Positions 2,670-37,172 are shown, counted from the stretch's first letter. The stretch is DNA of 38,148 nucleotides from Thermoleophilia bacterium (GCA_025964465.1 JAOPYS010000211.1:1-38148); one strand, 5' to 3'. Notes: a model not told the origin generated them from the sequence alone. A program made the numbers and translations.

Positions 2670-5600
2670 GTGACACGATCTGCACAGCGAGTCGAAGCAT
2701 TGCCGCGCCCTGCGGTCGCTTCGCCTGTGCGCCCGAACCTCGAGCTGGTCCCGGATTCGGCACCGACGAGCCGGCTCCTGCTCGTGCTTCCCGTCCTGAC
2801 GATCGTCATTCTCGCCCTCGCATCGCTCGCCGTCGTCCAGACCGTCCGCCACGGCCAGCGCACCGGCCAGTGGACGCCGTCGACGTCATTCCTGAACGAG
2901 GCTCGACCGCTGCCTGACTTCGTCAGCACGCCCCTCGGCGACCCGGTGGCCGGCCGCGCCTGGAAGTCCGCCGCACGATTCCCCGCAGCGCTGGGTGAGC
3001 CGCTCCAGGGCGGGTTCAGTGCGACGCAGCCGCGCCAGGTCGGGTTCGGGATGATCGGGGCGGCCCCCACCCTCGACCGCTCCGACTACCAGCAGGGCGT
3101 GCGCTTCACGACCGCCGAGTACGACGTCGTGATGGATGCCAACGCCCCCGACGCCACCATCCGCGAGCAGACGGTCGTCCGCGAGCACCAGGGCCTCAAG
3201 ACCTGGCGCTGGAACGCCTACGGCCCCGGCCCGCTCACCGTCGCGAGCGACGGTTCCATCCACTTCGGCAACGGCGGCCGCATCCTGGCGCCGGTGCTCT
3301 ACACCGAGCGTGGCACGCGCATCGCCATGCCCGGCCTCGCATGGCGCGTGGACGGCATGCAGTTCTCGCTCACGCTCGACGACTCGCACCTGGCGCTGCC
3401 GTACGTGATCGACCCCGACTCCATCGCCCCGATCATCGCGATCCAGGGCATCACCAGTGCGAGCCCGTGTACGTACGTGTCGTCGCCCACGAACATCTAC
3501 GTCCGCTCGAAGGGCTGCGCCGGCAGCCTCACGGTGCGCGCCAAGGCGTTCGACCCCTTCGAGGGCGTCAACGACTTCCCCGACCCGATCGGTCCGGCGT
3601 GCGCGCCGACCGCCACGTGCGACCAGAACCCGGTCGGCCTCGGCACGGGCACGACGGCCGGCACGTACGGCGTGGCCTTCAACCCCGCCCCGCCTGTCCT
3701 CAACACCACCGGCACCGCGAACTGGACCGGCGCCTCCACGGTCTACCAGGCCGGCGCCCCCCGGGGCCTCAAGCTCCAGTGCTGGCTCGACGGCGGGTTC
3801 AGCGGCCCGAGCTCCACGGGCACCGACACGCGCATCGACTACGACGCGCAGACGTTGGGCACGGCGCAGGGGTTCCGCAACCAGCACACCGACGGGGCCG
3901 GCCAGCCGCCGCGAACGATCACGAGCTCCGGCGGCCACAACGCATCCGACATCTCGTGCTACTGGACCGGCTACATCACGCCGCGCGGCAACAACACCGG
4001 CACCTATGGCTTCCAGACGTACTCCGACGACGGCATCCGCCTCGACATCGGTGCGAGCGGCGTCAAGGGCAACGAGGGTGGGTGGACGGTGGAGAACGGC
4101 TGCGGCGGCCCCACGCCGACCAGCTGCTTCTGGAGCGCGCACGGACCGAACTGGAGCGGGGTGTGGACGGGCGGCAACGGCGCCGCCAATACCGCACCCG
4201 CGACCATCAACATGGCGACCCAGGACGATGCGAGGGCGCTCACCGTCTCCTACTTCGAACGTGGCGGGCAGTCCGCGACCGGGCTGATCTGGGACCCCCC
4301 GGGCACGCCGACCCTCGACCACGGCGCGATCGGCGCCAAGCCCAACTACGAGGTCGTTCCTTCGGACGACTACGTGCAGGAGATCTACTACGACCAGACC
4401 TACACCTGGGCCTCCGACAACAACGATCCGCTCGCGCAGCAGAACGCCGTCACCGTCACGGCTCGCGATGCCGGCGGCCGCACGGCCAACCCCACCACGA
4501 CGGCCCCGACGACCCAACCCTTCACGATCTGGACCGACAACGACATCCCGGAGCCGATGAAGGCCTGGAGCATGACGGTGGCGCCGAACTGGACCACCAA
4601 CGCCAACTGGACGAACGACAACACGATCGCGTTCAACAAGCAGGACGACACGGACGGCACGACCGGCGGCACGCAGTCCGGAATCGCCCCGGGCACCGCG
4701 GGCATCGTGTTCCGGCGCATCTTCGCTCCCCTCGATCCCGTCACGCACGACTGCGGCGTCCCGCAGCCGGCCCAGGACATCACCACGACGGCCGGCTTCA
4801 CCTACAACACGGCAACGGCCCAGAGCTACACCGACACCGTGGCGGACGGCTGCTACTACTACGACTACACGCGCAGCGACCGCGTCGGCAACCAGGCGAT
4901 CTCCAGGATGACCCTGACCGCCGACCCCGCCGACACGAGCACGTGGCTGCGCGTCGACACCACCAAGCCCGTGTGGTCGCCCGGCAGCTTCGCCTTCACC
5001 GCGCAGCCGGGCTCCTCCAGCTACGTCTCGTGGGACGGCAACACGACGACGCGCACGATGTTCTACAACCCGACCGTCTCCGGCGCCGTGAAGGTCTCGG
5101 CGGGGTTCACCGACGACGGCCGGGGCGTGGATCGCGTCCTGTTCCCCGACCCTGACGGTGCCGGCAGCGGCTGGCCGCTCGGCGTGGTCAACGACACGAC
5201 CGACAACAACCCCGCCCCCTACTCCGGCATCTTCAGCTGGAACATCGGGGCCACCAGCCCCGGTCTGCTGACCGCGCAGGCCTACGACCTGGTGTGCCCC
5301 GGCACCGGATCACCCAATTACACGGGCTACACGGCCGGCGGCTGCACGACCACGCCGACCATCGCCAACGGGCCGACGAACCTGACGTACACGATCACGG
5401 CCGACAGCTCCACCCCGACGGGCGGGACGTTGTTCACGCAGAAGCCGTCGCCCGGGTGTGGCACCAACATGGCCAACCTCGACTACTTCAGCTCGAACAT
5501 CTGTGTCACGCGCGGCGGTTCGGCGATCACCGACACGGGATCCCAGCCGGACTTCGCCAACGCGAAGTTCGAGCGTCGCGAATCGAACTTCGTCGCCGGC

Positions 5601-8600
5601 GCGTGCGACCCGATGACCAACACATGGGCGCTCGTCCCGGGCTCGACCCTGAACCCGCCGGCCTCGATCTCCGACACGTCGACCACGACGGGCAAGTGCT
5701 ACGAGTACCGGTACGCGATCCCCGACAAGGTCTCCAACTGGTACTACCTCACCAACGGTGTCGTGATCCGCAAGGACACGGTCGCGCCCCTGGGCGTGAT
5801 CAACGTGATCACCCCCAACCCCACCAGCGGCAACGTGACGATCTCCGGCTCGGCCGCCGACGCGGCGTCCGGCGTCGAGCACGTCGAGCTGCGCTACGAC
5901 TCGCCGACGGCCGGCACGACGTGGGTGACGTACTGCCCCAACCCCCCGGTGAGCGGCGGCAACTGGTCGTGCACCGTGGACACGTCCGGCTTCGTGCCGG
6001 ACGGGACGTACACGTTCCAGCTGACGGTGTTCGACTTCGCCGGCAACACCTTCATCCCGGCGACCGAGACCGTCGTGCTCGACAACTCCGCGCCGACCGT
6101 CAACACGTTGACGCTGACACCCAATGCGAGCCCGACGAAGCAGTTCGCGGTCAATTGCGCGCTGCCGTGCACCCCGCGCATCTACTACAACAACTCTGCC
6201 GGCGTCACCGGCAGCTTCGACCTCACGACGACGGCGACCGACGCGCAGACGGGCATCGGGTCCGTCATGTACGACGACATCGACGGCGTCGGCACCGCCT
6301 GGTCCCCAGCCGGGTCGGTCGACTCCAGCTCGCCCTACACCACGACCTTCGCATGGGCGTCCGGCGCGACCGCCGGCCCCTTCCTCAACGCCACGGTCGC
6401 CAACGGCGGCGGCAAGACGGTGACGCAGGGGTTCCAGGTCATCGCGGACTCGACCGCGCCGACGGGCGGGACGATCACATCACCCGCAGCGGCCTACAAC
6501 GTCCTGAGCGTCCCCGTGTCCTTCACCACCGGCACGGACGGGGCCGGCTCGGGCATCGGGCCGGTCACCGTCGAGCGGCGGTCCGGCACGCTCACGGGCG
6601 GCACGTGCAACCCAGCTGGCGGATTCGCGCCCGTCACCCTCGTGGCCGGCAACGACACCAGCGTCGTGAGCGGCAACTGCTACGAGTACCGCGTCCTGGT
6701 GAGCGACAACGTCGGCAACGTCTTCACGTCGCCGATCACGACCCCGACGAAGATCGACACAGTGCCCCCGACGGGCTCCATGACGAGCTCGGTGCCCTCG
6801 CCGTGGTCCGGCACGGTCGCGATCTACGGCACCTCGGGTGACACGAACTCCGGCGTGTCCGGCATCACCGTCACGCGGACGGGCACCGCCACGCCGCTCT
6901 GCAACAACCTGGCACCGGCGACGTGGGGCACGAGCAGCCCCGGCTGCCCCTTCGACACCACGACCGTCACCGACGGGCCGTACACGATCACGGGCGTGAT
7001 CAAGGACGTCGCCGGCAACACCACGACCTTCACGATGAACGTGATCGTCGACAACACGGCGCCGTCGATGAGCTTCAACGTCTTCACCGAGGGCGCCGGT
7101 GCGCAGTACCAGGCCGACGACGCGGGCAACCCCGCGAAGCACTGGTTCAACAACGCGTTCGGCGGTTCGTTCACCGTGAGCGTGCACGCGAGCGACGGTG
7201 GCGGCACCGGCGTCAACAACGTGACCTTCCCCGGCCTGCCGCCGTCGGGCTGGACCAACGGCAGCCTGGTCGACACCACGCTCGTCGCCCCCGACATCTA
7301 CGACGCGACGTACACGTGGACCGCGTGCACGGTTCCCGCGTGCGACCCGGGCTCGCGCACCGCGACCGGCACCGACAACGCCGGACGCACGGCGACCCAG
7401 AGCTTCATCGTGCAGGCCGACACCACGGTGCCGACCGGCGGCTCGATCACGCCACCGAACGGCGCGCAGAGCGCGACCAGCGCCATCATCCCGTTCTCCG
7501 TCGGTACCGACACGCAGTCAGGCATCGACCTCACCAACGGCTACATCATCCGCCGCGCCCAGGCCGGCATGACCGCCGGCGTGTGCAACGCGATGGGCGC
7601 CTTCACGCAGGTCGGTCCCGTCGCACCCGCCGGGCCCAGCTACACCGACACGGGCCTGGTCGACGGCCAGTGCTACCAGTACGAGCTGGTCGTCACCGAC
7701 CGGGTCGGGCGCACGACGACGTACGCCAACACCAACAAGGTGATCATCGACACGGGCCTGCCCGGCGGCACGATCAACGGCCTGCCCGGCTACGTCTCCG
7801 GCGTCATCGCCTTCTCCGGCACCGCGACCGACGCAGCGACCGGCCCGGCCGCGATCACGCTGACCTGGGCGGCCTCCCCCGGCGGCACGCCCACCGGCAC
7901 GGTCTGCTCCGGTGCCGGGCCGCTGGCGGTCGTCCCGGCGAACTCCACGACGTGGAGCTGCCCGGGCTTCAACACCGCCTCGCTCGCGGACGGCGTCTAC
8001 ACGATCAACCTGAGCGTTCGCGACGCCGCGAACAACAACAGCATCCCCAACAGCATCCAGACGACGATCACCGTCGACAACACCAACCCCTCCGTCACCT
8101 TCACGGGCTTCACGCCCGGCAGCGGTCCCAACTTCCAGTCGGTGACCGGCACGACGCTCTGGTTCAATCCCGCGCAGTCCGGCTCGGTCACGGTCTCGGC
8201 GACGGCGACCGACGGCGGCTCGGGCATCAACAACGTGCTCTTCCCCGACATCGACGGCGGCGGCGGCTCGCTTTGGACGCCCGCCGGGTTCGCCGACTCG
8301 TCGTCGCCCTACAGCCAGTCGTTCTCCTGGACGGCCGGCGCCACGTCCGTCGGCCCCCAGACGATCATCGCGACCGACAACGCCGGGCGCACCTCGACCG
8401 CGGCGTTCACGGTCTCCCCCGACACGACCGCCCCGGCCGGTGGTTCGCTGACCGTCACCGACCAGACGATCAACACGACCACCAACTCGGGTGCGATCAC
8501 CTACACCTCGGGCACCGACGCGCAGTCGGGCATCCTCAAGCGCGAGGTCTGGCGTTCGCAGGCGGTCTACAGCAACGGCACGTGCGGGTCCTACTCCGTG

Positions 8601-11600
8601 CCGGCCTTCTACGCCCTGACGGTCGCCAGCCCCATCGTCGACTCGGGCCTCGTCAGCGGCTTCTGCTACCAGTACGAGCTGCACGAGTACGACAAGGTCA
8701 GCAACGTGCGCACGTACAACTCGGCGGGCACGGTGCGCGTCGACACGGTGGCGCCGACGGGCGCCGTCGCCTCGCTGCCGGCGGGCCCGTGGGGCGGCAC
8801 GGTGCTCGTCAACGGCACCGCCGGCGACACGCTCTCGGGCGTCAACAACGTGATCGTCACGTACGACGGCCCGGGCACCAACGACGGCACCGTCTGCGCC
8901 TCGCCCTCCCTGACCGGGCCGGCCAACTCCAAGACGTGGGGCACGCCGGGCGGCTGCAGCTGGAACACGATCGCGCTCGGCCTCCCGGACGGCAGCTACA
9001 TCATCAACATCCAGGTGTTCGACGTCGCCGGCAACTCGGTCATGGGCACCTCGCGCACGGAGATCGTCGACAACAACGCACCGACGCCGTTCACGCACCT
9101 CGACTACGCCGAGGGCGCGGGCGGCAACTTCCTGTACTGGAACGCCGTCCCCGGCACGCCGATGTACTACAACCCCACGGGGGCCGCGACGTTCACCGTG
9201 CGCATGACGGCCGTCGACGCCGGCACGGGCATGAACCACGTCGCCTTCCCGTCGCTCGGTGCGAACTGGACGCCGGTGGGCGCCAACGTCGGCGGTGCCT
9301 CGCCCTACTCCTTCACGTACAGCTACACGTCGTCGCCCGCCAACCCCGGCGCGGCCGTCGCCACCGCGTACGACAACGCGGGCAACACGCGCACGGGCAA
9401 CTTCACGGTCACCCCCGACCCGGCCGCCCCCACCGGCGCGACCCTGAGCGTCCCGGGTGGCATCCAGTCGGCCACCTCGGCCAGCATCGCCTTCTCCACC
9501 GGCACCGACGCGCTCTCCGGCCTCGGCTCCTGGTCGCTCGAGCGGCGCAGCGGCACGCTCGCCGGCAACGTCTGCACGTCGTGGACCGGGTTCACGCCGG
9601 TCGGTGGCGTCAGCCCGCCGTCGCCGTTCAACGACACCGGCCTGGTCAGCGGGTTCTGCTACGAGTACCAGCTGATCACCAAGGACCGCGTCGACAACGC
9701 CGCGACGGTGACCGATCCCACGACCTTCACGATCATGGTCGACGGTGGCAACCCGTCCGCCACGATGAACCCGCCCGCGGCCTCGATCTCGGGCAACGGC
9801 AACGCGATCACCGGCACGGCGAGCGACGTGCAGACGGCGATCGACCACGTCACCGTCACCTACTCGGGCCCGGCGAGCGGCACGATGTGCGCGAGCATCC
9901 CCACCTCGCCCCCCGGCGGCGGCACCTGGAGCTGCGCCTTCGACACCAACCCCGGCCCGGCCCTGCCGGACGGGGTCTACACGTTGACGGTCACCTCCTA
10001 CGACGCCGCCAACAACAACAGCGGCCCGGTCACGCGCACGGTCATCGTCGACAACAACGGCCCGGTCATCGCGCCGCTCGTGCTCACCCCGACGAGCGGC
10101 ACCAACTTCATCTTCGTCGCCGGCACCACCGCCTACTTCAACCCGGCGGGCGCCGGCACGATCCGAGTGGACGCCTCCGCGACCGACGCAGGCGCGGGCA
10201 TGCAGCAGATCACCTACCCGAGCATGGGCTTCCCGGCGTGGACCGGCGGCGGCCCTGACACCACGGTGCCGTACCAGATGCCGTACTCGTGGTCGACCCA
10301 CGCACCCGGCGCCGCCAACCCGGGCCCCAAGACGCTCACCGCGGTCGACAACGCGGGCAACACCTCGACCGCCAACTTCACGATCAGCCAGGACGCAACC
10401 CCGCCGACGGGCGGCACCATCGACACCACGCCGCAGGTGCGCAACACGGCCGGCACGATCATCGCGCTGACCAACGGCACCGACGCGGCGTCGGGCGTCA
10501 AGTCGCGTGTGCTGCAGCGCTCGCAGACCGGCTACGCGAGCGGCGTCTGCAACGCCGGTGGCTGGACCGTGCCGGCGACGATCGCCACGTCGCCCGCGTC
10601 GCCCTACAACGACACGACGATCGCCAACGGCTTCTGCTATCGCTACCAGTTCGTCCTGACCGACAACGTGGACAACGTGGTGACGGTCGCCGATCCCGAC
10701 ACGGTGGCGTTCGACAACACAGCGCCGACGGGCACGATCAGCGGCACGCCGGTCGGCCCGTCGAGTGGTTCGATCACCATCACCGGGGACGCGCAGGACC
10801 TCGGTTCACGCGTCGCGTCGGTCGACGTGCGCTACAAGAGCGGCCCGAGCCCGAACGGCTCGATCTGCCTCGCCCCCACGCTGACCCCGGCCGCGCCGAC
10901 CACCAACGGCACGTGGAGCTGCGGCTGGACGACCACCGCCCTGCTCGACGGTACCTACACGCTCGAGCTGACCGTGACCGACGTCGCGGGCAACACGTAC
11001 GTGTACACGCGCACGATCCAGCTCGACAACAACCCGCCGGCCGTGACGTTCAACAGCTTCGTGCCGACCACCAACCTGCAGTACCAGTACTGGAACGGAG
11101 TGGTCGGCCAGCCGCTCTACTACAACCCCGCGTTCGGCGGCTCGTTCAACGTGCTCATCAACAACGTCGACGGTGGCACCGGCGCGGCCAGCGTCTCCTT
11201 CGTCGACCCGGATGCGGGCGCCGCGGGCTGGTCGCTCCCGCAGTTGAGCGACACCACCCCGCCCACGCCGTTCTCGGCGGCCTTCAACTGGACCGCCGGC
11301 GCCGCCCAGCCCGGCACGCAGACCGCCACGGGCTTCGACGTCGCCGGCGCGTCCGCGACCACCACGTTCAACATCCTGCAGGACACGGGCCTGCCGACCG
11401 GCGGCTCGATCTCCTACCCCACGCGCTACACGAACGCGGCATCGGCGACCGTGACGTTCGCGGCGGGCAGCGACGCGCTGTCGGGCGTCGGCAGCACGGC
11501 GATCTGGCGCGAGCAGACGACGCTCGCGGGCGGCGTGTGCAACGCGGGCGGCTGGACCGGGTTCACGTCGCTCGTCGCCAACCCGGCGACCCCGTACGCC

Positions 11601-14600
11601 GACACGACGACGGCCGACGGCTTCTGCTACCACTACCAGCTGCGCGTCACCGACCGCGTGGGCAACGTCGCCACCTACAACAGCACGGGGCCGACGGAGG
11701 AGCGCGTCGATCGCTCGCCCCCGAGCGGCAACGTCAACAGCGCGCCGGTCGGCCCTGCCAGCGGCGCCGTGCCGCTCACGGGCGTCTCGTCCGACGGCGC
11801 CAGCGGCATCAACTACGTCGACGTCACCTACAGCGGCCCGGCGAGCGGCTCGATCTGCGCGTCGCAGCCCGCCAACTGGTCGTGCTCGTGGGCGACCGGC
11901 CTGCTGCCGCAGGGCGTCTACACGATCACCGCGACGATCCGCGACCTGGCCGGCAACGTGTACGTCACGTCGCGGACGCTCACGATCGACAACACGCCGC
12001 CGAGCATCGCGTTCGCGTCGTTCACCGAGGGCACCAACCCGAACTACCAGTTCGCGGTCGGCTCCACGATGTACTACAACCCGGCCGGCACGGGCGGGTT
12101 CAGCGTCGGCATGAACGCCACCGACGCCGGCAGCGGCATGCAGCGCGTCGACTTCCCCGCCCTCGGCGCCGGATGGCTTCCCGGCGGCACCCAGAGCGCG
12201 ACCATCCCCGCCGGCACGATCTACAGCGGTGCCTACAGCTGGAGTGCCACGCCCACCCCGCCCGGCACGAAGTCAGCCACGGCGTTCGACGTCGCGGGCA
12301 CGTCCGCCACCGCCGGCTTCACCGTCACGCCCGACACGTCCGCCCCGTCGGGCGGCTCGGTGTCGAGCCCGACCGTGATCCAGACCACCGCTGCCGTGAC
12401 GGTCACGTTCGGCACCGGCGGCGACACGGGATCCGGCGTCGGCTTCTGGCAGGTCCAGCGCCGCGCCACGGCCTACTCCAACGGCGTCTGTGCCACGGGC
12501 GCGTGGCTGCCCTGGGGCCCGCTCGTCGCGTCCAACAACGCGCCGGGATCCACCTTCGTCGACACGACCGTCGCCGACGCCACCTGCTACGAGTACCGCC
12601 TCGAGGTCCGCGACAACGTCGACAACATCATGACCGTGCCGGCGACGGGCATCACGCCGGTCGACCTGACCAACCCGAACGGCGCGATCGATCCGGGCAC
12701 GCCCGCCAGCCCGTTCAGCGGCACGGTCTCGGTCATCGGCACGGCGTCCGACGCGGCGTCCGGCGTGCAGAGCGTCGCGGTGACGTACTCGGGCCCGGCG
12801 TCGGGCACGATCTGCCCCACGGCCACGGCGCCCGGCGGCAACTGGACGTGCTCCTGGCCCACCGGCGGCCTCGCCGACGGCACGTACACGCTCACGCTCG
12901 TCGTCCGCGACAACGCGGGTCGGTTCAGCGCGCCCACCACCCGCGTGGTCGTCGTCGACAACCTCGCCCCGGTCATCGCCTTCAAGGCGTTCGCCGAATC
13001 GAGCGGTGCGATCTACCAGTATCCGAACTCCAGTGCACCACTGAACAAGATCTATGTCAACACCGCGCAGACCGGCACCACGCAGGTGCAGTTCACGGTG
13101 ACCGACGGCGGCACCGGCGTGCAGGACCTCGCCTTCCCGGGGCTGGGCAGCAACTGGAGCGCGGGCGGCGCCGACAGCACGGTGACGGCGCCCAACCAGT
13201 ACGACTGGAACTACACGTGGACCGCCGGCGCCGCCGATCCGGGCGTCAAGACGGTGACGGCCCGTGACAACGCCAACAACACGTCGACCTCCACCTTCAT
13301 CGTCGAGTCCGACATCACGGCGCCCGGCGGCGGCGGCCTGACCGTCCCCAACACGACCAGCAACAACGCGAGCCCGACGATCGCCATCTCGGCCAGCTCC
13401 GACACGCAGTCGGGCATCTTCACGACGGTCCTGGAGCGCCGCTTCGGCCTGCTCTCGCCGAGTGGCTGCGCCGCGCCCGGCGGCTGGACGCCGATCGCCA
13501 CCAACCCGGCTGCCAGCTACGTCGACGGGCCGCTGACCAGCGGGCGCTGCTACGAGTACCACGTCCTGGTCACCGACAACGTCGGCAACGTCCAGACCAT
13601 CCCCTCCGCCTCCGTGTACAAGCTCGACACGCAGGCGCCGACCGGCAACATCAACGTGCTGCCGGCCGACCCGTTCAGCGGCACCGTGACGATCAGCGGC
13701 GACGCCTCCGACGCCCTCACCGGCGTGTCCTTCGTGGACGTCGCCTACGACGGGCCGGGCACCACGGACGGCAACGTGTGCCTCTCCCCCGCCCTCTCCG
13801 CGGCGCCCGATCCGCGCCTGTGGTCGTGCCCGTGGCCGACGCCGCTCGTCGACGGCACCTACATCCTCAGCCTCGTCGTGCACGACCTGGCCGGCAACGT
13901 CAGCGCGCCCTTCACCCGCACGGTGATCGTCGACAACGTGGCGCCGACCATCAGCTTCCTGGACGTGCAGGAGACCGGTGGCAACAACTTCCAGTTCACC
14001 GACGTGCCGGCGGCCAAGCACTACTACAACCCGAACCAGACCGGCACCTTCATCGTCCGCATGAACGCCGCGGACGGCGGCACCGGCGTCAAGCAGGTCG
14101 ACTTCCCGACGCTCGCCGCGCCGTGGACCGGTGGCGGCGTGGACAACACGGGCCCGACGCCCTACACCGCCACGTACGGGTTCTCCGCCGTCACCCTGCC
14201 GAGCCCCGGCCTCCAGAACGCCATCGCCCGCGACAACGCCGGCAACACGGCGACCGCGAGCTTCCAGATCGAGGCCGACTCGGCAGCGCCGACCGGCGGC
14301 TCGATCGTGGTGCCGAACACGATCACCAAGCTGACCTCCGTCACCATCGGCTCGACCGCCAGCTCCGATTCCCAGTCCGGCATCGCCTCGGTGCAGCTGC
14401 AGCGCCGCCAGACCACGTACGCCAACGGCGTCTGTGACACAGCCTCCTGGAGCCTGTTCGCCGACCACGGCCCGGCCAACCCCGGCACCTCCTACACGAG
14501 CACGGTCGCCGGCGGCTTCTGCTACCAGTACCAGCGCGTCGTCACCGACAACGTGGGCAACAAGCAGCTCGACCCGAGCACCAACACGGTCAGCGTCGAC

Positions 14601-17600: not shown

Positions 17601-20600
17601 GTCGCCGGCGCGCCGGGCACCGTCTGCCTCTCGCCGCCGAGCCCGACGAGCTGGAGCTGCAACTGGAACTCGACCCTCGTGCCCGACGGCACGTACGTGA
17701 TCGAGCTGACCGTGCACGACAAGGCCGGCAACACGTTCATCACCACGCAGCCGGTGATCGTCGACAACCTGCCGCCGGTCGTCGGCGTCGCGACGTGGAC
17801 CCCGCAGCTCAACCCGAGCTACCAGTACGTCGCGGCCGCCGCCCCGAGCCTGCTCTGGTTCAACCCGGCCTTCACCGGCTCGGCCCGCCTCGACGTGGCC
17901 GCGTGCGACACGAGCGGCATCGCCGGCGCGACCTTCCCGGACGCCGACGGCGCCGGCTCGCTGTGGGCACCGAGCGGCGGCTCGACCGACACCACGGCCG
18001 ACAACACCTCGGCCGTCTGCCCGGCGGGCCAGGGCGGCGTCCTCTCCGGCACGTACAACTGGTCGGTCGGCGCCACCACCAACGCCGGCTTGAACGTCGT
18101 CGTCACCGACAACGTGCCCAACTCCTCCAGCAAGACGTTCGAGGTGCGCCGCGACAACACGGCACCGACCGGCGGCTCGCTCAACTACTCCTCCGCGCGC
18201 ACGAAGCTCAACAGCTCCGGCAACATCACCTTCGGCTCGGGCACGGACGGGCTCGGCTCGGGCGTGCGCAGCTTCCAGGTCGAGCGCCAGTCCTACACCC
18301 TGCTCGCCGACGCGTGCACGTCGCCCGCGGGCTGGACGCCCGTCGCGCCGGCCAACACGGTCTCCCCCGTCGTCGACACCACCATGGTGGACGGCCACTG
18401 CTACGAGTACCGCCTCGTCGTGACCGACAACGTCGGTAACGTCGCCACGTACGTCGACCTGCAGTCCGACATCGTCCGCTTCGACCAGACGGTGCCGAGC
18501 GGCGCGATCAACCCCACCCCGGCCGGGCCGATCGGTGGCGCCAGCAACGTCTTCACCGGCACGAGCGGCGACGTGCACACCGCGGTCGACCACGTCACCC
18601 TGAGCTGGACGGGCCCGCAGGCGCCCGGCAGCGGCGCGATGTGCGCCGACCCGGTCCCCACCGCGAGCTGGACCTGCACGTGGAACACGACCGGGTTCGC
18701 GGACGGCTCGTACACGATGATCCTCACCGTGTACGACCTGGCCGGCAACATCGGCAACGCCTCGCGCGTCATCACGGTCGACAACCAGCCGCCGATCGTC
18801 GCCTTCGATTCGTGGACGCAGAGCACCAACCCGCAGTGGCAGCACGTCTCCGGCACGCGGCTGTACTTCAACCCGGGCCAGACCGGTGGCGCCCAGCTGC
18901 GCATCCAGGCCAGCGACAGCGGCACGGGCGTCAACCGCGTGGACTTCCCCGACCTCGACGGCGGCCTCTCGCTGTGGACGCCGGGCGCGACGTCCAACTC
19001 GGCCGGCCCCAACCCCTACCTCAACACGTACACGTGGGCGGCCGGCGCCGCCAGCTCGGGCGCGGTCAACGCGGTCGCCTACGACAACGCCGGCAACTCC
19101 TCGACCGTCGGGTTCGACGTGGTCGCGGACGGCGTCGGCCCGACGGGCCAGACGGTCAACCCGCCCAACTCGTTCACCTCCTCCACGACCGCCACCGTGG
19201 CGTTCACCACGGGCTCCGACGCGCTGTCCGGTGTCGGTGGCTGGCGGATCGAGCGCCAGAACGCGCCCCTCACCAATGGCTCGTGCGGGTCCTACCTCGG
19301 CTGGGGCCCGGTCGGCGGGCCCGACCCGAGCTCGCCGTTCGTGGACACCGGCCTGCTCGACGGCACCTGCTACCAGTACCGCCTCCAGGTGACCGACAAC
19401 GTGGGCAACTCGACGCCCGCGACCAGCCTCAACGAGGTCAAGGTCGACACCTCCAAGCCGACCGGCGCGATCAACCCCGCGCCGGCCAGCCCGTGGAGCG
19501 GCAACGCGGTGCCGGTCGCTGCGACCTCCGCGGACACGGGCAGCGGCGTGGCCAATGCGCGCCTCAGCTTCGCGGGCCCGGCCACCGGCACGATCTGCAC
19601 CGAGGCGACCGCGCCGGCCGCCTTCTCCTGCAACTGGAACACGCTCGTCGGGGTGCCCGACGGCACCTACACGATCACGCTGACGGTCACCGACCGCGCG
19701 GGCAACGCCAACAACCCGGGGCCGGCGTACCAGCGCACGGTGCTGGTCGACAACAACGGCCCGGTCATCGCCTTCAACAGCTTCGTCGAGGGTGCCAACC
19801 CGCAGTTCCAGTTCATCAAGGCCGGCACGACGATGTACGTCAACCCGCTCGGCAACGGCGGCTTCGACGTGCTGTTCGACGCAACGGACGCGGGCGCCGG
19901 CGTGAACCGCGTGGACTTCCCCGACCTGGGCCTGAACTGGAGCCCCAGCGGCGGCGGCAGCGACACGACCGGGCCCACCCCCTACTCGCAGACGTACTCG
20001 TTCAACACGGGCAACGTCGCGCCGAGCAACCCGGTCGACCCGATCGTCACCGCGGTCGACAACGCGAGCAACTCGAGCACCGCCACCTTCAAGGTGCTGC
20101 ACGACGCGTCCGCGCCGACCGGTGGCACGCTCAACGTGCCGGCGCTGCTGACCAACGGCACGAGTGCCACCATCGCCTGGACGCCCGGCACCGACGCGCT
20201 GTCGGGCCTCGGCCGCGTCGAGCTGAACCGCCGCCAGCGGCCCTACACCGGTGGCAGCTGCACGGGCGCCTACGGCCCGTTCGCGGTGATCGCCACCAAC
20301 CCCACGCCGAGCTACGCCGACACCACGATCGCGGACGGCTTCTGCTACGACTACTCGCTGACGCAGTACGACAACGTCGAGAACTCCTCCACGACGGTCG
20401 ATCCCGCCGGCGACGTCGTCCGCGTCGACCGCACGCCGCCGAGCGGCACCATCGACCCGCTGCCGGCCGGCCCGTGGAGCAACACGGTGACGATCGGCGG
20501 CACGGCGGTCGACACCAACAGCGGCCTCGTCGACATGGACCTCACGTACGGCACGCCGACCGGCAACGCCTGCCTGAACATGGCGCCCGGCACGCCGTGG

Positions 20601-23600
20601 AGCTGCGTGTTCGACACGCACTCGATGCCGGCCGACGGCACCTACACCTTCACGCTGGTGCTCACCGACGCCGCAGGCAACGTCAACTCCGTGCCGATCA
20701 CGCGCACGGTGCTCATCGACAACGGCGGCCCGACGGTCTCCGCGGTCAAGTGGGTCGAGACCGTGAACCCGCAGTACCAGTACGTGCCGACGCTCGACCT
20801 CACCAAGCTCTGGTTCAACCCGGCGCAGGGTGGCAGCGCGCGCCTCGAGGTGACGGCCACCGATTCCGGCAGCGGCGTGGACCGCGTCGACTTCCCGACC
20901 ATCGGCACGGGCTGGACGCCGGCCGGGGCCACGGACAACTCGGCGCCCAACCCTTACACCAACGACTACACGTGGGTGAGCGGCGCCTCCACGCTCGGCT
21001 CGCGCAACGTCACGGCCGTCGACCTCGCCGGCAACGCCACCACGTCGCCGTTCGTCACGGTGCCCGACCCCAACCTGCCGACCGGCGGCTCGATCAGCTA
21101 CGTCAATGGCTTCACCAACTCCGCCACCCCGACCATCACCTTCACGCCCGGCACGGACGTCGACTCCGGGATCGGGAGCTGGGCGATCTCCCGCGAGACC
21201 ACCTCCCTCACCGCCGGCGTGTGCGGCACGTACGGCGGCGCCACGGTCGTCGGCGGCGCCAACCCGTCCGGCACGACGTTCGCCGACAGCGGCCTGGTCG
21301 ACGGCAGCTGCTACCGCTACAGCCTGATCGTGACCGACAACGTCGGCAACGTGCGGACGTACACCAGCCCGAGCGAGGTCAAGGTCGACACGACCATCCC
21401 GACCGGCGCCATCGACGTCGCCCCGGTCGGCCCCGTCAGCGGCCTCACCGCCTTCACCGGCATCTCCGGCGACGGTGGCAGCGGCGTCAACACGCTGACC
21501 ATGACCTACACGGGGCCGGGCACGGTGCCGCCCTGCACGGTCGCGCTGCCGGCCACGGTCAACCCGTGGAGCTGCGGCATCAACACCGCCAGCTACACCG
21601 ACGGCACCTACACCCTGTCGCTCGTCGTCACCGACCGCGCCGGCAACAACAGCACGCCGTTCACCCGCACCGTGGTGTTCGACAACCTGCCGCCCGCGCT
21701 GAGCTTCTCCAGCTGGGTCGAGACGACCAACTCCCAGTACACGCACCCCGTGGGCAACCGCATGTGGTTCAACGGGGCGCAGAGCGGCGCGTTCGACCTG
21801 TTCATGGGTGCCGTCGACACCGGCAGCGGCGTCGCCAACGTCACCTTCCCGGCGCTGGGTGCCGGCTGGACCCCGGGCGCTCCGTTCGTCGATGCATCGG
21901 CCCCGAGCCCCTACACCGTCTCCTACGCCTTCTCGCCGAGCGCGGCCAACCCCGGCGCGCAGAACGCGATCGGCACCGACGTCGCCGGCAACACGGGCCT
22001 GGGCGCCTTCATCGTCTCGAGCGACACGGCGCCGACGACCGGCTCCTCGCTCAGCTACACGGGCGGCAACACGAGCGCCGCCAGCACGTCGCTGACCTTC
22101 TCGGCCGGCACCGACGGCACGGGGTCGGGCTTTGGCCGCACGCAGCTGCAGCGCCGCGACGCGACGCTCTCCAGCAGCACCTGCACCTCGTGGACCCCGT
22201 TCGCCAACCTCGGCGCCGCGAACGCCCCGTCGCCCTACGTGGACTCGACCACGGCGGACGGCCGCTGCTACGAGTACCAGCTGCTCGTGTTCGACAACGT
22301 GGAAAACATCGAGACGGTGACCCCCGGTACCATCGTGAAGGTCGACCGCACCAAGCCCGTCGGCGCGTTCACGGCGCCGACCGCCGGGCAGTTCATCTCC
22401 GGCACCTTCGCGGTCACCGGCACGCACTCGGACACCGGCAGCGGCGTCGCGACCTTCGACATCACCTACGCCGTGACCAACAGCGGTTCGGTCTGCGCCG
22501 CGCAGACCCAGGCCTCGCCGTTCAGCTGCTCCTGGATCACGCCCGCCGACGGTCCGTATGACCTGACGCTCGTCGTCAAGGACAACGCCGGCAACACGAG
22601 CGTGCCGGTCACCGTCTCGGTGATCGTCGACAACAACCCGCCGACCGTCACGTTCGACAGCTGGCTCGAGGGCACGAACCCGCAATACCAGTTCGCCGCG
22701 GGCAACAAGATGTGGTTCAACCCCGCCAACTCGGGCGACTTCCGCCTCAACATGGCGGCCACCGACACGGGCAGCGGCGTCAACCGCGTCGAGTTCCCGG
22801 CGCTCGGTGCCGGCTGGACCCCCGCCGCGATGTTCGCCGACAACGTCCCGCCGACGCCGTACCAGAGCATGCCGTACGGCTGGACGCCCGGTGCGAGCAG
22901 CCCGGGCGCGAAGACCGCCCTCGGGTTCGACAACGTCGGCAACAGCGCCACCGGGGCCTTCTCCGTGCAGGCCGATTCCGTGCCGCCCTCCGGCGCGACG
23001 ATCAGCTACCCCGGCGGCTGGAGCACGAGCACGACGGTCGGCGTCAACTTCACCACGGGAACCGACCTCGGCGGCTCGGGCATCGGCCACCACCAGCTCC
23101 AGCGGCAGAGCTCACCGCTGGTGGCGGGCGTGTGCACCGCGTACGGCGCATGGGCCAACATCGGCCCGGCGAGCCCGCCCGTGGGCACCCCCTACACCGA
23201 TTCGACCCTCGCCGACGGCTTCTGCTACAAGTACCAGGTCCAGGTCTGGGACAACGTCGAGAACCGCTTCGACCAGGGCGACTCGGCCGAGGTGAAGGTC
23301 GATTCCACCAAGCCGACCGGCACCATCGATCCGCTGCCCGCGTACGTGAGCGGCAACGCGCTCAGCGTCACCGGCACGCACGCCGACGCGGCGAGCGGCG
23401 TGGCGACCTTCTCGGTCACCTACTCCGGCACCGCCACCGGGTCGATCTGCGCGCCGACGGCCGCCGCCAACCCGAGCCCCTGGACCTGCACCTGGGACAC
23501 GACGAACGCGGCGACGCCCGACGGTCCGTATGACATCACCATCACGGTGGTCGACCAGGCCGGCAACATCAGCGTCCCGTTCATCGAGTCGGTCATCGTC

Positions 23601-26600
23601 GACAACGGCCTGCCGACGATCGCGTTCGACAGCTGGGTCGAGGGTGCCAACCCGCAGTTCCAGAACGCGATCGGCAACAAGATGTACTTCAACCCGGCGC
23701 AGACCGGCGCCTTCACGCTGCGCATGGCGGCCACGGATGCCGGCAGCGGCGTGAACCGCGTCGACTTCCCCGCCCTCGGCACGGGCTGGTCGCCCGCGGC
23801 GCCCGCCTCCGACACGAGCGGCCCCTCCCCCTACGACATGGTCTACGCCTGGACCGGCCCGACCCCGGCCGACCCGGGTGCCAAGGTCGCGACCGCGGTC
23901 GACAACGTCGGCAACCAGAAGACCGGTGCCTTCGCGGTCGAGGCGGACTCGACCGCGCCGACCGGCTCGACGATCGTGGCGAACATCCCGCCGAGCGGCT
24001 ACACCAGCGGCGCGTCGGTGGACGTGACGTTCGCGCCTGGCACGGATTCGCAGTCCACCACCGGCGAGTGGCAGCTGCAGCGCCAGCCCGGCACCCTCGC
24101 CGCCGGCACCTGCACGATGAGCGGCTCCTGGGCCAACCTCGGGCCGCTGAGCCCGCCCTCCGGCGTGCCGTACGTCGACTCGTCGATCACCGACGGCCAG
24201 TGCTACCAGTACCGCATCAACGTGCTGGACAAGGTCGGCAACGTCCAGACCGTGACGGCGCCCGGCACGCTCAAGGTCGACCGCACGCCGCCCACCGGCA
24301 CGATCGACACGCCCGTCGGCCCGTTCGTCTCCGGCCCGATCACGATCGGCGGCACCCACGCCGACACGCTCAGCGGCGTCGCGTCGTTCACGCTCACCTT
24401 CACGGGCACGAGCAGCGGCACGGTCACCTGCTCGGGCGCCCAGCCCTCGCCGTGGAGCTGCCCGCTCGTCACCAACTCGATCGCAGAGGGCCTCCACACC
24501 TTCCTGCTCACCGTCACCGACCTGGCCGGCAACGTCAGCGCGCCGATCACCAAGGACCTGACGGTCGACAACCTGCCGCCGACGATCCTGTTCGACCACT
24601 GGGTCGAGAACGGCGGCGCCAACTACGAGTACGCCACCACCGACACGATGTACTACAACCCCGCCGGCGCGGGCTCGTTCACCCTGCACATGACCGCCGC
24701 GGACACCGGCAGCGGCGTCAACCGCGTGGAGTTCCCGGCGCTCGGCACCGGCTGGACGCCCGCCGCCGTCACTCCCGACGCGACCGCCACCGGCACGCCG
24801 GCCACCTTCGACCAGATGTTCACGTGGACGGCGGGCGCCTCGGCCCCGACCGATCCGCAGAACGCGACCGCGTTCGACAACGTCGGGCTCACGGCGACCG
24901 CCGGGTTCCACGTCCTGCCCGACGCGGTCGGCCCCACCGGCGGCGCTGCGGTGTACCCGGCCGCCACGAGCAACGCCGCGACGTTCGACATCGGCATCAC
25001 CAACCCGACCGACGGGCTCTCCGGCCTCGACACCGTGCAGCTCGAGCGCGAGAGCGCGCCGTTCACGGGCGCCGCGTGCGGCACGACCTGGTCGCCGTTC
25101 ACGGCGATCGGCCCGGTCAACCCGACCGGCACGACCGTGACCGACACGACGACGGTCGACGGCTACTGCTACCGCTACCGCCTCCTCACGGTCGACCACG
25201 TCGGCAACGTCTCGACCTTCCCGTCCACGAACGAGATCCGCGTCGACCGCACCGCACCGACCGGGGCGTTCTCGACCTTCGACATGGACGGCCCGGGGCC
25301 GCTCGCCGCCGTGCCGGCGGTGGCGGGCATGTACGTCGGCAACAACTTCGTCATCAACGGCTCGGCGACCGATTCTGGCAGCGGCCTGACGACCGTCGGG
25401 GTGTACGCCACGCCCACGGCCGGCACGGAGTTCGTCATCGAGGACCCCCTCCTGACCGGCCCGAACCCGTGGTCCACGCGCTGGGATTCGCGTGCCAAGC
25501 CCGACGGCGCCTACACGCTCACGGCAAAGGTGCGCGACCTGGCCGGGAACGTCGCCCTCATCACGATCAACGTGATCGTCGACAACACGCCGCCGGCGAC
25601 CGCGCTGCTCGACTTCGTCCCGGGCGCCAACCCGACCTTCCAGTACGCGGACAACGCCAACGACATCCAGTGGTACAACCCGGCCGTCGGCGGCGACTTC
25701 GGCGTCCGCGTCGAGGCCACCGATTCGCCCGGCAGCGGCATGGCGCGCGTCGACTTCCCGGCCATCGCCGCCGGCTGGTCGCCCATCCCGGGCTTCACCG
25801 ACTCCTCGGTCGGCGCGGTCCCGCCCAACTCGTGGGGCGACACCACCAACTACGCGTGGACCCCGACCTCCACGGCCTCCAACGCGACGCCGTACAACGC
25901 GACCGCCTGGGACCTCGCCGGCAACTCTCGAACGGTCGCCTTCTCGGTCAAGCCCGACTCCGTCGCCCCGACCGGTGGCGTCATCTCCTACCCCGGTGGC
26001 TACACCAACGTGGCCAGCGTCGCCGTGAGCGTGACGAGTGGCACGGATGCCGAGTCCGGCCTGCGTGACGCGCAGATCGAGCGCCGCGCCGCGAACCTCG
26101 TCGGCGACGTGTGCTCGACGCCGTACAGCGCATGGGCATCGATCGGCACGCCCATCCTCACGCCGACCGGCACCTTCACCGACACGACGGTCGTCTCAGG
26201 GCGCTGCTACGAGTACCAGGTCGTCGTGAGCGACAACGTCGGCAACCGCACGCCCGCGACGACCGTCGGCCCGACGATCGTCAAGGTCGACACCGACCTG
26301 CCGCTCGGTGGGTTCACCGCACCCGCCGGGCCGAGCGTCTCCGGCGCCGTCCCGGTCACCGGCACCTCCAGCGACGTCACGACGGGCGTCGCCAAGGTCG
26401 AGGTCGCCTACGACGGCCCGGGCGCCAGCGACGGCACGATCTGCACGCTGAACGCCCCGCCCACCACCGTCTCCCCCGGCTGGAGCTGCCCCGCGTGGGA
26501 CACGACCGTGGCGTCGGTCACGCCCGACGGCACCTACGTGCTCACGCTGACGGTCACCGACTTGGCGGGCAACGTCATCGCGTCCCCGAAGCCGACGAAG

Positions 26601-29600
26601 ACGGTCATCGTGGACAACACCCCGCCGGTGATCGACTCGTTGACGCTGTTCGAGGGCACGACGCCCCTGTTCGAGGAGATCGCGCCGAGCGGCACCGAGA
26701 TCTTCTTCAACCCGGCCCAGGCCGGAAACTTCCGGGCCGAGGTCGTGGCACACGACGACGGCACCGGCATGAACCACGTCGCCTTCCCCGACATCGATGG
26801 TGCCGCCGCCGGGTGGACGCCCGACGCGCTCTCCGTCGCGCCCGGCGCGACGGTCACCACGCCCTACGTCGCCAACTACTCCTGGGTGCCGGGCGTGACG
26901 TCGCTGGGCACCGTGAACGCCACGGCGTTCGACAATGCCGGCGCGAGCAAGACGGCACCGTTCAAGGTGACGGCCGACGCGACCGCCCCGACCGGCGGCT
27001 CCATCAGCACCACCAACGGCTGGCTCGTCGGCCCGGACGTGACCGTCACGTTCGGCACGGGCACCGACGACGTCGCCGGCGTGACCGGGTCGGGCATCGG
27101 CAGCTGGAGCATCGAGCGCCGCGTCGCCCCGATTGTCGCGGGCGTCTGTGACACCGCCAACTGGAGCGCCGCCTGGACCACGATCGGCGGCGCCTCTCCC
27201 GCCACCCCGACGCTCGTGGACTCCACCACGCTCAACAACAACTGCTACCAGTACCGCCTCGCGCAGGTCGACAAGGTCGGCAACCGCTCGACGCTCGACG
27301 CCGAGACGTCGCCCGGCGTGCCGATGATCGTCATGGTCGACCGCAACGCTCCGACCGGCGTGGTCAACACCCCGACGACCACGTGGGTGAGCGGGCCCAC
27401 GAACCCGGTGGACGGCACCGTCGCCGACGGCGAGAGCGGCGTGGCGCGCGTGGACGTGCGGGCCGTCAACATCGCCGATCCGACGCTCTCCAACAACATC
27501 TGCCTCTCGACGGCGATGACCCCCGCCCCCGCGTTCGGCGCCGGCGTCGCGACCGCCGCATGGGCCGGCTGCAACTGGAACACGACGATCGCCACGGCCG
27601 ACGGCAACTGGAAGATCGAGATCGAGGTCATCGACCTCGCGGGCAACCGCGCCAAGTACAGCCGGACCTACCTGGTCGACAACCTCGCACCGGTCACGGC
27701 CTTCAAGCAGTTCGTCGTCGGCGTCAACCCGGGCTACCAGCACATCGACCCGATCAACCCGGCGCTGCTGTACATCAACGGCAGCCTGTCGGGGACCTTC
27801 ACGGTGGAGGCGACGTCCAACGACGGCGCAGGTGCGGGAGTCAATGACGTGACCTTCCCGTCCCTCGGCGCCGCGCCGTGGGCGACCCTGCCCAGCAGCG
27901 GCATCGACACCACGGTGGTGCCGACCGACACCTACTCCGTCGACTACCAGTGGGGCACGGGCGCGACCAACCCGGGCGTCCAGACGCTCACCGCCCACGA
28001 CAAGGTCACCGTGCCGGCCGGTGGCCACGCGTCCACCGCCGACTTCGAGGTGCGCGTGGACAACAACGCACCCACCGGAGGCGCCGTCAGCTACACGAAC
28101 GGCTGGAACCCCTCCTCCACCGTCGCCATCCCGTTCACCGCACCGAGCGAGCCGCTGGGCGAGAGCGGCATGGCATCCACGCAGCTGCAGCGCATGACGG
28201 GCACGATCGTCGGCGGCGCCTGCGTCATGCCGGCCGTGCCGGTCTGGAACAACGTCGGCGCGGCGAACCCCACGAGCCCGGCCCCGGATTCGGGCCTCGT
28301 CGACGGCATGTGCTACCAGTACCGCATCGCCGGCACCGACAACGTGGGCAACGTCGCGTACTACGACGACCCGACGAGCTTCGTGCTCGTCGACGCGACC
28401 GCGCCGACCGGCACGATCAGCAACATCCCGGCCGGCTCGGGGCCCGCCAACGCGCTCAGCGGCGACATCAGCACGCCGCCGTTCAGCGGCACGACGTCCG
28501 ACGGCCTCAACGGCTCCGGCGTGTTCTCCGCCACGGTCACCTTCCGCGACAGCAGCGGCACGCCCAAGACGTGCACCATCACCGCGCCGACGCCGCTCAA
28601 CCCGTGGACGTGCGCCTGGAACACGCTGTCGCCGTTCATCGCGTCGGGGACGTTCACGATGGAGCTCTCCGTGCGCGACGTCGCCGGCAACGTGAGCCTC
28701 CCCGGCACGATCACCCGCACCGTCGTCATCGACAACACGCCGCCGACGATGTCGCTCTCCGGCCTCGTCGAGGGCACCAACGCGCAGTACCAGTTCGCCG
28801 ACCTGCCCGGCCAGACCATGTGGTACAACTCGAACTTCGGCGGCGACTTCCGCGTGGAGATGGACGCGACCGACACCCCGGCGGGCGTCCACTTCGTCGA
28901 CTTCCCCGACCCCGACACGACTGGCACGAGCTGGCAGCTGACCGGCGGCACGCAGCAGCTCACGGTCAAGCCGTCGACGACGAGCACGTACAGCAAGCAG
29001 TTCACGTGGACGTCGACCGCCGCCGACCCGGGCTCGCAGCTCGCGACGGCCTACGACTGGGCGGCGGCAGCCCCGCCGGCGCTCTCGCCGAACAACTCGA
29101 TCACGGCCGGGTACACGATCAAGGACGACCCCACCGACCCGACCGGCACCTCGATCAGCTACTTCAACGGCTACGTGCTGCCCGGCGCGATGTCGGTGAC
29201 GTTCGACGCCGGCACCGACGGAACGGGCGTCGGCATCGACCCCACCCTGACCCGCATCGAGCGGCGCAGCGCGCCCGTCTCGGCGCCGGCCGGCGTGATG
29301 CCGACCTGCCCCGGCCCGCTCACCGCCGCGTGGAGCCTCTGGACGACGGTCGTCACCGGCGCGACCAGCCCGTGGGTGGACCCGACCGCCGTGCCCGGCA
29401 CCGTCGACGGGACGTGCTACGAGTACCGCGTGTACGCCTCCGACCGCGTCGGCAACGAGACACCCGCCGTGGCGCCCGTCGCCCCGAGCACGGCGATCGT
29501 CGCGCAGCCCGGCTTCGTGGTCACGCGCGACCCGGCCTGCCCGCCGCAGCTGACCGAGGACCAGCTGGCCCCCGGCACGCCGAGCTGCACCCTGCACGTG

Positions 29601-33012: not shown

Positions 33013-33498
33013 TCAGCGCAGCCAGATCGCGACCGACTCGTCCTGCTTCTCCTGGATCTTCGCCGCCATCTTGGTGAGGTTCTCGTAGGTGCTCATCTGC
33101 ATCGTGTACTGCTGCAGCTTGGCCGGGTCCATCGTGCCGTTGCCGGCGGCGAGGTCGCCCTGGATCGCCTCCTGGATCTTGTTCATCCCGTTCTGGGCGA
33201 ACGCCGCGATCTTGGCGACGCCGCTCTTGAGCGCGTCGGTGATCGCCCCGCCACCGACGGCCGACGAGAAGTCGGCGCCGAGCTGCGGTCCGAACTTCGA
33301 CGTCACGAGCGCCTGTGCGGCGGCGTCGGAGGTCGACCCCGTGCCGGACGCGGGTGCGGGCGCCGGGTCGAAGCCGGTCTGCACCTGCGCCGCCGCCGAG
33401 CCGACCGGCGTGCTGGCCACCGGGAGGGCATAGGCCGAGTAGGCCGGCTGGAGGCTCGGCGAGGGCAGGAGGGCGGAGTACGGGCTGAGTGTCGTCAT
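33013..33498 (-). CDS. Hypothetical 161-aa protein: low-complexity Ala/Pro/Ser N-terminal half and helical-hairpin C-terminus resembling type III needle/filament-type subunits
   Basis: ATG at 33498 with the SD-like AGGGA 6 nt upstream, and codon bias consistent with its neighbours. The C-terminal 45 aa, GTMDPAKLQQYTMQMSTYENLTKMAAKIQEKQDESVAIWLR, resemble by eye the PrgI/MxiH tail (PSDPALLAAYQSKLSEYNLYRNAQSNTVKVFKDIDAAIIQNFR). The function is unproven. Confidence 0.6.
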   Translation of the reverse strand: MTTLSPYSALLPSPSLQPAYSAYALPVASTPVGSAAAQVQTGFDPAPAPASGTGSTSDAAAQALVTSKFGPQLGADFSSAVGGGAITDALKSGVAKIAAFAQNGMNKIQEAIQGDLAAGNGTMDPAKLQQYTMQMSTYENLTKMAAKIQEKQDESVAIWLR

Positions 33499-37157: not shown

Positions 37158-37172
37158 GTGCTCCCCTCCTCC

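Follow-up and report, generated by a model that had tools for sequence, protein, structure and literature searches.

Background

Long stalks of tandem beta-sandwich domains occur on bacterial surfaces, and an actinobacterial giant with dozens of immunoglobulin-like (Ig-like) domains, the adhesin of Mobiluncus mulieris, is reportedly of the sortase type. This adhesin is described with a length of 7,651 aa, 51 Ig-like domains and intramolecular ester, isopeptide and thioester cross-links (PMC10619420). SiiE of Salmonella enterica, a giant non-fimbrial adhesin, spans 175 nm with 53 bacterial Ig-like (BIg) domains (PMC6272769). In Periscope proteins, highly identical DNA repeats recombine and the repeat number varies between strains (Whelan et al. 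2021, PMC8201768). Protein repeats expand by several domains per event, often in the middle of the array (PMC1553488). A first-pass annotation of 38,148 nucleotides of a Thermoleophilia bacterium (GCA_025964465.1 JAOPYS010000211.1:1-38148; this whole stretch is called the window in the following) described at positions 4400-29510 an array of diverged super-repeats with codon-exact spacings. Here, this array is characterized. The explanation that accounts best for all observations, and which we hold to be quite probable, is that the region forms the repetitive core of a single gene for a giant cell-surface fibre protein of ~1 MDa, in a Thermoleophilia-like high-GC actinobacterium.

Results and discussion

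One gene with a three-module super-repeat

The region 4400-29510 is contained entirely in one giant open reading frame (ORF) at 2670-32996 (+), which starts with GTG and continues unbroken over 10,108 aa. The G+C content is 70% for the window and 96.6% for the third codon positions (GC3) of the ORF. The regular expression C[YA]xY...DxV, applied as marker to the 10,108-aa translation, yielded 26 matches, and their spacings were identical to the 25 values listed in the first-pass annotation: 282, 327, 331, 331, 331, 326, 330, 320, 321, 324, 323, 317 and 317 aa for spacings 1-13, followed by 336, 323, 325, 322, 319, 319, 326, 322, 346, 346, 356 and 368 aa for spacings 14-25. Thus three successive steps of 993 nt, between the Cys codons at 6678, 7671, 8664 and 9657, were recovered, as was the reported length of the final four units (346, 346, 356 and 368 aa). 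The marker of unit 14 (Cys 4908, nt 17391) reads CASY instead of CYxY. Units were cut 24 residues past each marker and the pieces were aligned with MAFFT, which placed the markers at homologous positions within the last of three modules.

Units U03 to U26 are alignable end to end and comprise the modules A (~100 aa), B (~117 aa) and C (~106 aa). With hidden Markov models (HMMs) of the modules, the protein was parsed as BC + (ABC)x24, or as B'C' + BC + (A-B-C)x24 once a degenerate start is included; about 76 Ig-like modules are present in total. The degenerate B'-C' remnant, or unit 1, at 4365-4904 (+) comes after a PA14-like stretch, carries the first marker (Cys 728, nt 4851) and was detected with independent E-values of 2e-4 for B (aa 566-607) and 1.9e-6 for C (aa 650-745). 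U02 (4923-5768, +; 282 aa) has the modules B and C without A and is orthologous to the first units of two relatives, P0078 (53% identity) and L013 (43%). The HMM string then gives 24 complete A-B-C units, U03-U26, at 5769-29486 (+), starting at 5769, 6750, 7743, 8736, 9729, 10707, 11697, 12657, 13620, 14592, 15561 and 16512 (U03-U14) and at 17463, 18471, 19440, 20415, 21381, 22338, 23295, 24273, 25239, 26277, 27315 and 28383 (U15-U26). Four cysteines are conserved per unit, two in module A and two in module C. U23 (25239-26276) lost the module-A pair and has two cysteines, while six each are present in U03, U04 and U15.

The AlphaFold2 model of U20, calculated with the 24 units as alignment, is an all-beta structure of three beta-sandwiches (predicted local distance difference test (pLDDT) 93.7, predicted template modelling score 0.82). 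Foldseek aligned it to strings of Ig and fibronectin type III (FN3) domains, including SiiE BIg50-52 (2yn3) and the FnIII tandem of the titin A-band; further matches were Fn3-like modules of CbhA, NCAM2 and macroglobulin domains. On the sequence level, a search of the unit profile against the PDB retrieved SiiE BIg50-52 as sole relative (E 3.8e-7), restricted to module A; the shared motif is 'ladGtYt..tv.D.AGN....tv.vDnt'. The Pfam family Big_13 (PF19077) matched U04-U06 with 50.4 bits, above its cut-off of 27, and 22 of the 24 single units at E <= 0.01 (best 1.3e-9). Big_3_3 (PF13750) stayed below its threshold with 25.3 bits versus 27, and the NCBIfam search gave no matches. In profile comparisons with hhalign, module A was linked to C with 96.6% and to B with 91%, hence the three modules are diverged copies of one domain: a single bacterial Ig-like domain of the SiiE type diversified into A, B and C. 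Amplification concerned B-C first and the A-B-C super-unit afterwards. The three modules evolve at similar rates, with identities of 0.56/0.54/0.50 (A/B/C) between orthologues and 0.41/0.39/0.37 between paralogues. This offered no clear difference that would speak for a module-specific selection, and the idea was dropped.

Collinear orthologues

An exhaustive profile search provided 2,815 representative proteins at E <= 1e-30; matches in protein databases were confined to ~0.6-1.8 times the query length. Genome and metagenome contigs were searched with a five-unit alignment (VTDNVGN) and an alignment of U06 orthologues as seeds, and scans of these contigs with N-terminal patterns found no relative. 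Read with the module HMMs, the family follows the grammars (A)n, (BC)n, (C)n and (ABC)n. Complete relatives have up to 4 triads, and fragments such as P0073, C(ABC)8, derive from larger arrays. Where relatives carry a name, it is 'laminin sub domain 2, partial [Thermoleophilia bacterium]'. Four contigs were of particular value: L001 from a Thermoleophilia metagenome-assembled genome (MAG), 15.4 kb and entirely one open frame with 16 markers; L003, likewise from a Thermoleophilia MAG, with 10 markers; L004, labelled Gaiellales, with 14 markers; and the metagenome contig L013, with 19 markers, the gene start and the synteny of gmk, rpoZ and the giant gene.

The units of these relatives map onto the array in collinear order: L013 onto U01-U15, P0078 onto U02-U06, L004 onto U04-U14, P0077 onto U07-U10, P0046 onto U07-U09, L001 onto U10-U21, P0083 onto U15-U17, L003 onto U20-U26 and P0086 onto U21-U23. 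When 107 units were pooled and aligned, the nearest relative was the collinear unit of another genome for 23 of 25 window units, with 44-69% identity to the orthologue versus 35-48% to the best paralogue. The exceptions, U20 and U21, are closest to each other (55%). Hence the array, with its units individually recognizable, already existed when these lineages diverged, and amplification preceded the separation of all available orthologues. By synteny with L013, the N-terminal region and the ordered units U01-U15, together with the collinearity of L001, L003, L004, P0078 and P0077, the protein can be assigned to an orthologous group of gmk-rpoZ-linked giant Ig-like proteins of Thermoleophilia-type MAGs.

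Divergence between the units

All unit pairs have protein identities of 29-54% and DNA identities of 49-66%. Adjacent units share 33-54% of their residues (mean 41%), in agreement with an estimate by eye of one third to one half. An 18-nt match between 7671 and 8664, pointed out in the first-pass annotation, is exact and extends no further, but it is not the longest run between neighbours; this amounts to 23 nt and was found for U11/U12 and U16/U17. Between any two units the maximum is 27 nt. A repeat search recognized only regions 948-1005 nt apart that were 60-81% identical. Codons are shared at 0.70 of the positions with the same residue, compared to 0.67 expected from codon usage, and this value is flat with distance in the array; the proportion of synonymous differences (pS) between paralogues is 0.41 throughout. 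Synonymous sites between units are saturated. Thus the view of an old and diverged array, not recently amplified, was confirmed by DNA identities, short exact runs and codon sharing alike, where 'old' means predating the lineage splits and synonymously saturated, and not necessarily ancient in absolute time.

A tandem history has left weak traces. Identity declines with distance in the array (Mantel r = -0.41, P < 5e-5), and for 8 of 24 units a neighbour is the nearest relative within the array (P = 0.002). U03, U25 and U26, at the ends of the array, are least similar to the others. RecA-dependent exchange in E. coli requires ~20-30 bp of perfectly matching sequence and falls off sharply as sequences diverge. 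The array, with DNA identities of 49-66% between units and exact runs of at most 27 nt, offers hardly any substrate for homologous recombination, and the divergence may plausibly protect the array and stabilize its length, as far as can be judged from the sequence. Divergence of adjacent domains has also been proposed to avoid inter-domain misfolding (PMC4660218; PMC8201768), and the divergence among modules of the same type fits with this proposal.

Copy number and the long 3' units

Orthologues have one to four additional units, confined to the surroundings of U11-U13 and U20-U21; the comparison of unit counts suggested with the first annotation thus revealed a number that varies, at restricted places. 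The first growth zone covers U11-U13 (13620-16511, +), with two extra units in L001, one in L004 and four in L013. The second covers U19-U21 (21381-24272, +) and includes the most similar pair of the window, U20/U21 (54%); extra units resembling U20/U21 are present in L003 and P0073 (two each) and in L001 (at least one). L013 displays a two-unit period, with 61-79% identity among u10, u12 and u14 and 63-68% among u11, u13 and u15 (u12 to u14 79%, u11 to u13 68%). Its six units at 11915-17722 represent a triplicated U11-U12 block specific to this lineage. The same period was observed in L001 (u02 to u04 59%, u03 to u05 56%) and L003 (u01 to u03 51%). Even the youngest pair, u12 and u14 of L013, has 79% amino acid and 77% DNA identity and shares no exact run longer than 26 nt. 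Copy number hence changes by rare tandem duplication of two-unit blocks of ~1.9 kb in two internal zones, which matches the general finding on repeat expansion (PMC1553488).

The long units U23-U26 (25239-29486, +) owe their additional length to many insertions of 2-13 aa, mainly in loops and across all three modules. Their L003 orthologues measure 327, 350, 348 and 343 aa. Great length marks the 3' units of L003 as well, which makes it an ancestral property of these units.

Unit length in general is inherited: across 53 pairs of orthologous units it correlates with r = 0.74 (0.61 if the end units are left out), and the difference between orthologues has a standard deviation (SD) of 9 aa. A selection for the individuality of units, considered in the first-pass annotation, is borne out in so far as every unit can be paired with an orthologue of its own and has inherited a characteristic length; the constraint on the units is weak, however, and their number is not fixed.

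The three 993-nt steps

The steps correspond to U04-U06 (6750-9728, +), each of 331 aa. Their modules measure 98/123/84, 109/115/81 and 109/116/80 aa, thus equal totals were reached through different indels, and the other equal pairs (317/317, 319/319 and 346/346) are likewise sums of different module lengths. Five adjacent equalities appear only with markers in the ungapped block that ends module C (35 of 292 ungapped columns), whereas markers at other columns give 0-3. The orthologues of U04-U06 have 340/343/333 aa in L004 and 320/328/323 aa in L013. A codon-exact phase in the sense of an inherited register could therefore not be upheld: module lengths differ and two orthologues have unequal units. 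Three exact steps of 993 nt are most likely a coincidence.

Alternative explanations

A regular period of ~970 nt is what would be expected of a recent tandem amplification, or of an assembly artefact of a shorter repeat. Such an origin can be practically dismissed: near-identical DNA between units is absent, with a maximum of 66% and no exact repeat above 27 nt, Tandem Repeats Finder did not detect the array (period > 500, identity < 70%), and the units have distinct orthologues in other genomes. Concerted evolution by gene conversion would hold the units in register and leave the 993-nt steps as its footprint, and both the three identical spacings and the mutual relationship of U20 and U21 (54-55%) would be in line with it. 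We consider this very improbable, since codon identity equals the expectation from usage and does not rise for neighbours, U04-U06 are just 38-39% identical and have different indel patterns, and 23 of 25 units are nearer to orthologues than to paralogues; gene conversion between units was not detectable.

Two further proposals concern growth and length. The ordered lengthening at the 3' end had been taken as a hint at a polarised history, in which units were added and lengthened at this end; the monotonic series 346, 346, 356 and 368 and the high divergence of the terminal units point in this direction. The terminal units of L003 are long, but not monotonically so, the extra units of the orthologues and the most similar pairs are all internal, and a high terminal divergence is also expected if the end units are the oldest (PMC1553488). 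Polarised growth is thus improbable and was abandoned in favour of internal duplication. A ruler-like constraint, under which neighbouring units need an equal number of residues, e.g., for in-register lateral packing comparable to titin or nebulin, would explain that 5 of 24 adjacent spacings are equal, a result with P = 4e-4 when all spacings are naively shuffled and 0.005 when the shuffle is restricted to the core. It would also explain the nearest orthologue fragment, P0078 (aa 1270-2269), with 333/333/333 aa at U04-U06 despite ~10, 4 and 2 separate indel events, and adjacent spacings of 328/328 in the fragment P0094. Nevertheless, a ruler seems very unlikely. The equalities depend on the choice of the marker, U04-U06 are unequal in L004 and L013, orthologous units differ in length with the SD given above, and equal adjacent pairs are about as frequent in orthologues as by chance (4 of 58, L013 excluded from the count). 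Moreover, the physical length of loop-rich beta-sandwiches is not set by the residue count. As unit lengths are locally autocorrelated, a local null based on the density of small adjacent differences was used; ~1.6 equalities were then expected (Poisson P ~0.02). This value, the two shuffle results and the three times 333 aa at the same units of P0078, reached through independent indels and unexplained, count against a coincidence, with which we are not fully comfortable. If a ruler were true, a selection on the residue length of super-units would represent a bacterial 'molecular ruler' or a constraint by in-register packing, and the fibre would assemble laterally or against a periodic partner.

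Evolutionary rate

Rates were calculated from the window and its orthologues in L013; ratios of nonsynonymous to synonymous substitutions (dN/dS) between paralogues were dropped, with synonymous sites at codon-usage equilibrium. The housekeeping neighbours gmk (88.7% identity, dN 0.10, dN/dS 0.12) and rpoZ (90% identity, dN/dS 0.16) are conserved, whereas the units of the giant protein have 48-63% identity, a dN of 0.34-0.54 and a dN/dS of 0.38-0.69; its N-terminal region has 45% identity. The dN of the giant gene is thus ~4-5 times that of gmk and rpoZ. A dN/dS of ~0.4-0.7 indicates a weak constraint on the units. The rate jumps across one intergenic region, from 89-90% identity in gmk/rpoZ (1550-2425 versus 32-899 in L013) to ~50% in the giant gene.

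Some points weigh against the overall picture of an old array in a giant surface fibre. The dN/dS values are rough, with a pS of ~0.5 between the genomes and an extreme codon bias. The orthologues are partial contigs, orthology was deduced from best hits and identity matrices, and the taxonomic labels of the MAGs are coarse. Function, localization and orientation of the protein were read from the sequence only, a secretion or anchoring system was not identified, and the C-terminus has no known anchor.

Regions outside the core array

The first residues, 'VTRxAQRVEALP', are kept in the L013 orthologue. They are followed by a strongly hydrophobic segment at aa ~30-60 (2757-2849, +), in which 19-aa Kyte-Doolittle windows exceed 1.8 only at aa 30-42; comparable segments are present in P0078 and L013, and it may serve as N-terminal signal-anchor. 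A conserved region at 2850-3935 (+) with the motif 'LPYVIDPD' is 49% identical to the N-terminus of P0078 and had no match in the Pfam search. The motif recurs in the distant giants P0092, P0102, P0108 and P0120. A PA14-like stretch was matched at 3936-4052 (+; PF07691, aa 423-461) with 27.4 bits against a cut-off of 24, a weak assignment, as no single stretch reached the passing score.

Downstream of the core, the alignment revealed 8 further beta-sandwich repeats, 111-134 aa long and of the type 'VTVTAVDD...DND', which form a second array at 29517-32375 (+). Their AlphaFold2 model (pLDDT 92.3) resembled a generic Ig-like or PapD-like fold in Foldseek (template modelling score ~0.55), and the repeats had no Pfam match at E <= 1. 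Related arrays occur in proteins annotated as Calx-beta, and PF03160 is found elsewhere in some homologues. The name Calx-beta (PF03160) was not adopted for the second array itself, for which Pfam gave no match and Foldseek only generic Ig folds of the PapD/MSP type. In the translation, a low-complexity linker rich in Pro, Ala and Lys follows at 32436-32603 (+), and the protein ends with a region of ~130 aa (32604-32993, +) that has no transmembrane segment, LPXTG motif or RTX repeats.

From this arrangement, a surface role can be proposed. The protein would be exported and held by its single N-terminal hydrophobic segment, and would project as a rod of roughly 0.25-0.3 um, a length scaled from SiiE (PMC6272769). 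The PA14-like domain would be located near the base, and the second beta-sandwich array and the C-terminal domain would form the tip. Such a fibre might act as adhesin or as spacer.

Genomic surroundings

Upstream of the giant gene are a dihydroorotate dehydrogenase gene (pyrD), a mihF-like gene, gmk (1550-2149, +; PF00625, 3.8e-40) and rpoZ (2171-2425, +), the latter two syntenic with L013. A terminator-like hairpin is located 3' of rpoZ at 2457-2477. The synteny with L013 covers the upstream side alone. Downstream, a flagellar cluster at 34843-38056 (-) comprises a flgL-like gene (34843-35718, -), flgK (35727-37157, -) and a weak ORF resembling a rod-binding protein; translations of the first two matched Flagellin_N and Flagellin_C. 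Between the flagellar cluster and the giant gene, an ORF of 160 aa (33013-33498, -) combines an N-terminal half rich in Ala, Pro and Ser with a C-terminal half of helical appearance; it was without match in the Pfam search. Long antisense open frames run inside the giant gene at 12273-23093 (-; 3,606 aa) and 26196-32936 (-; 2,246 aa). Most likely they are a by-product of the GC3 of 96.6% on the sense strand and not genes.

For annotation, these results mean that the array is real and did not arise in the assembly, and that the long open frames on the antisense strand should most likely not be annotated as genes. The window contains a complete 30-kb gene for a giant surface protein of a poorly studied actinobacterial class, whose relatives are known only as fragments. 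It provides a clean bacterial super-repeat of several domains with units traceable one-to-one across genomes, and thus a natural system for the growth of arrays, for the divergence of surface repeats versus housekeeping genes and for the stabilization of length through divergence.

Comparison with known systems

The closest described counterpart is SiiE: both proteins are long rods of tandem, mutually diverged bacterial Ig-like domains, and module A matches BIg50-52 in sequence (E 3.8e-7) and in fold. SiiE, however, is a substrate of a type 1 secretion system (T1SS) in a Gram-negative bacterium and repeats a single domain, whereas the window protein has a three-domain super-unit in an actinobacterial context, an N-terminal hydrophobic segment and ~76 Ig-like modules. 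The RTX nonapeptide GGxGxD is found nowhere in the giant protein, and the window contains no T1SS genes, its flanks being pyrD, the mihF-like gene, gmk, rpoZ and flagellar genes. The class of T1SS-RTX giant adhesins (SiiE/LapA) was therefore rejected, in spite of the SiiE-related BIg domains. A sortase-type LPXTG protein was likewise rejected, as LPxxG occurs only internally (aa 1523, 4194, 4829 and 8407) and a C-terminal hydrophobic segment is lacking. In this respect the protein differs from the Mobiluncus mulieris adhesin, which is also described as an actinobacterial giant of dozens of Ig-like domains; no sequence relationship between the two was found.

The fixed order of several distinct domains within a super-repeat is shared with the titin A-band and nebulin, as an analogy and not as membership. 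The pattern is alike, with ~40% identity between modules at the same position of different units versus ~19-26% between neighbours within a unit, and so is the mainly internal expansion by blocks of several domains (PMC1553488). Titin contributed FnIII tandems to the fold matches, with no homology beyond the general Ig/FN3 fold. The period of titin and nebulin matches a filament, and no such partner is known for the window protein.

Periscope proteins are also tandem beta-sandwich stalks that present terminal domains at the surface, an arrangement that would hold for the window protein as well. The array represents the opposite regime, with unit DNA identities of up to 66%, exact runs of up to 27 nt and collinearity across lineages, and the Periscope class was not assigned. 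In a superfamily member of 4,218 aa (P0082), A-B and B-C blocks recur, as judged by eye, in several nearly identical copies one after another; on this reading, recent Periscope-like amplification does occur elsewhere in the domain family.

The distant giants P0092, P0102, P0108 and P0120 (4.6-7.9 kaa) share the 'LPYVIDPD' region, a PA14-like domain, BC/ABC units and 'VTVTAVDD' repeats with the window protein. They have 0-4 ABC triads, dozens of the second repeats and a C-terminal transmembrane segment with a basic tail, in contrast to 24 triads, 8 repeats of the second type and no C-terminal transmembrane segment here; expansion of the two arrays seems to have been reciprocal between lineages. 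The window protein is an ordinary, though very large, case of an already known protein type and reveals no new mechanism.

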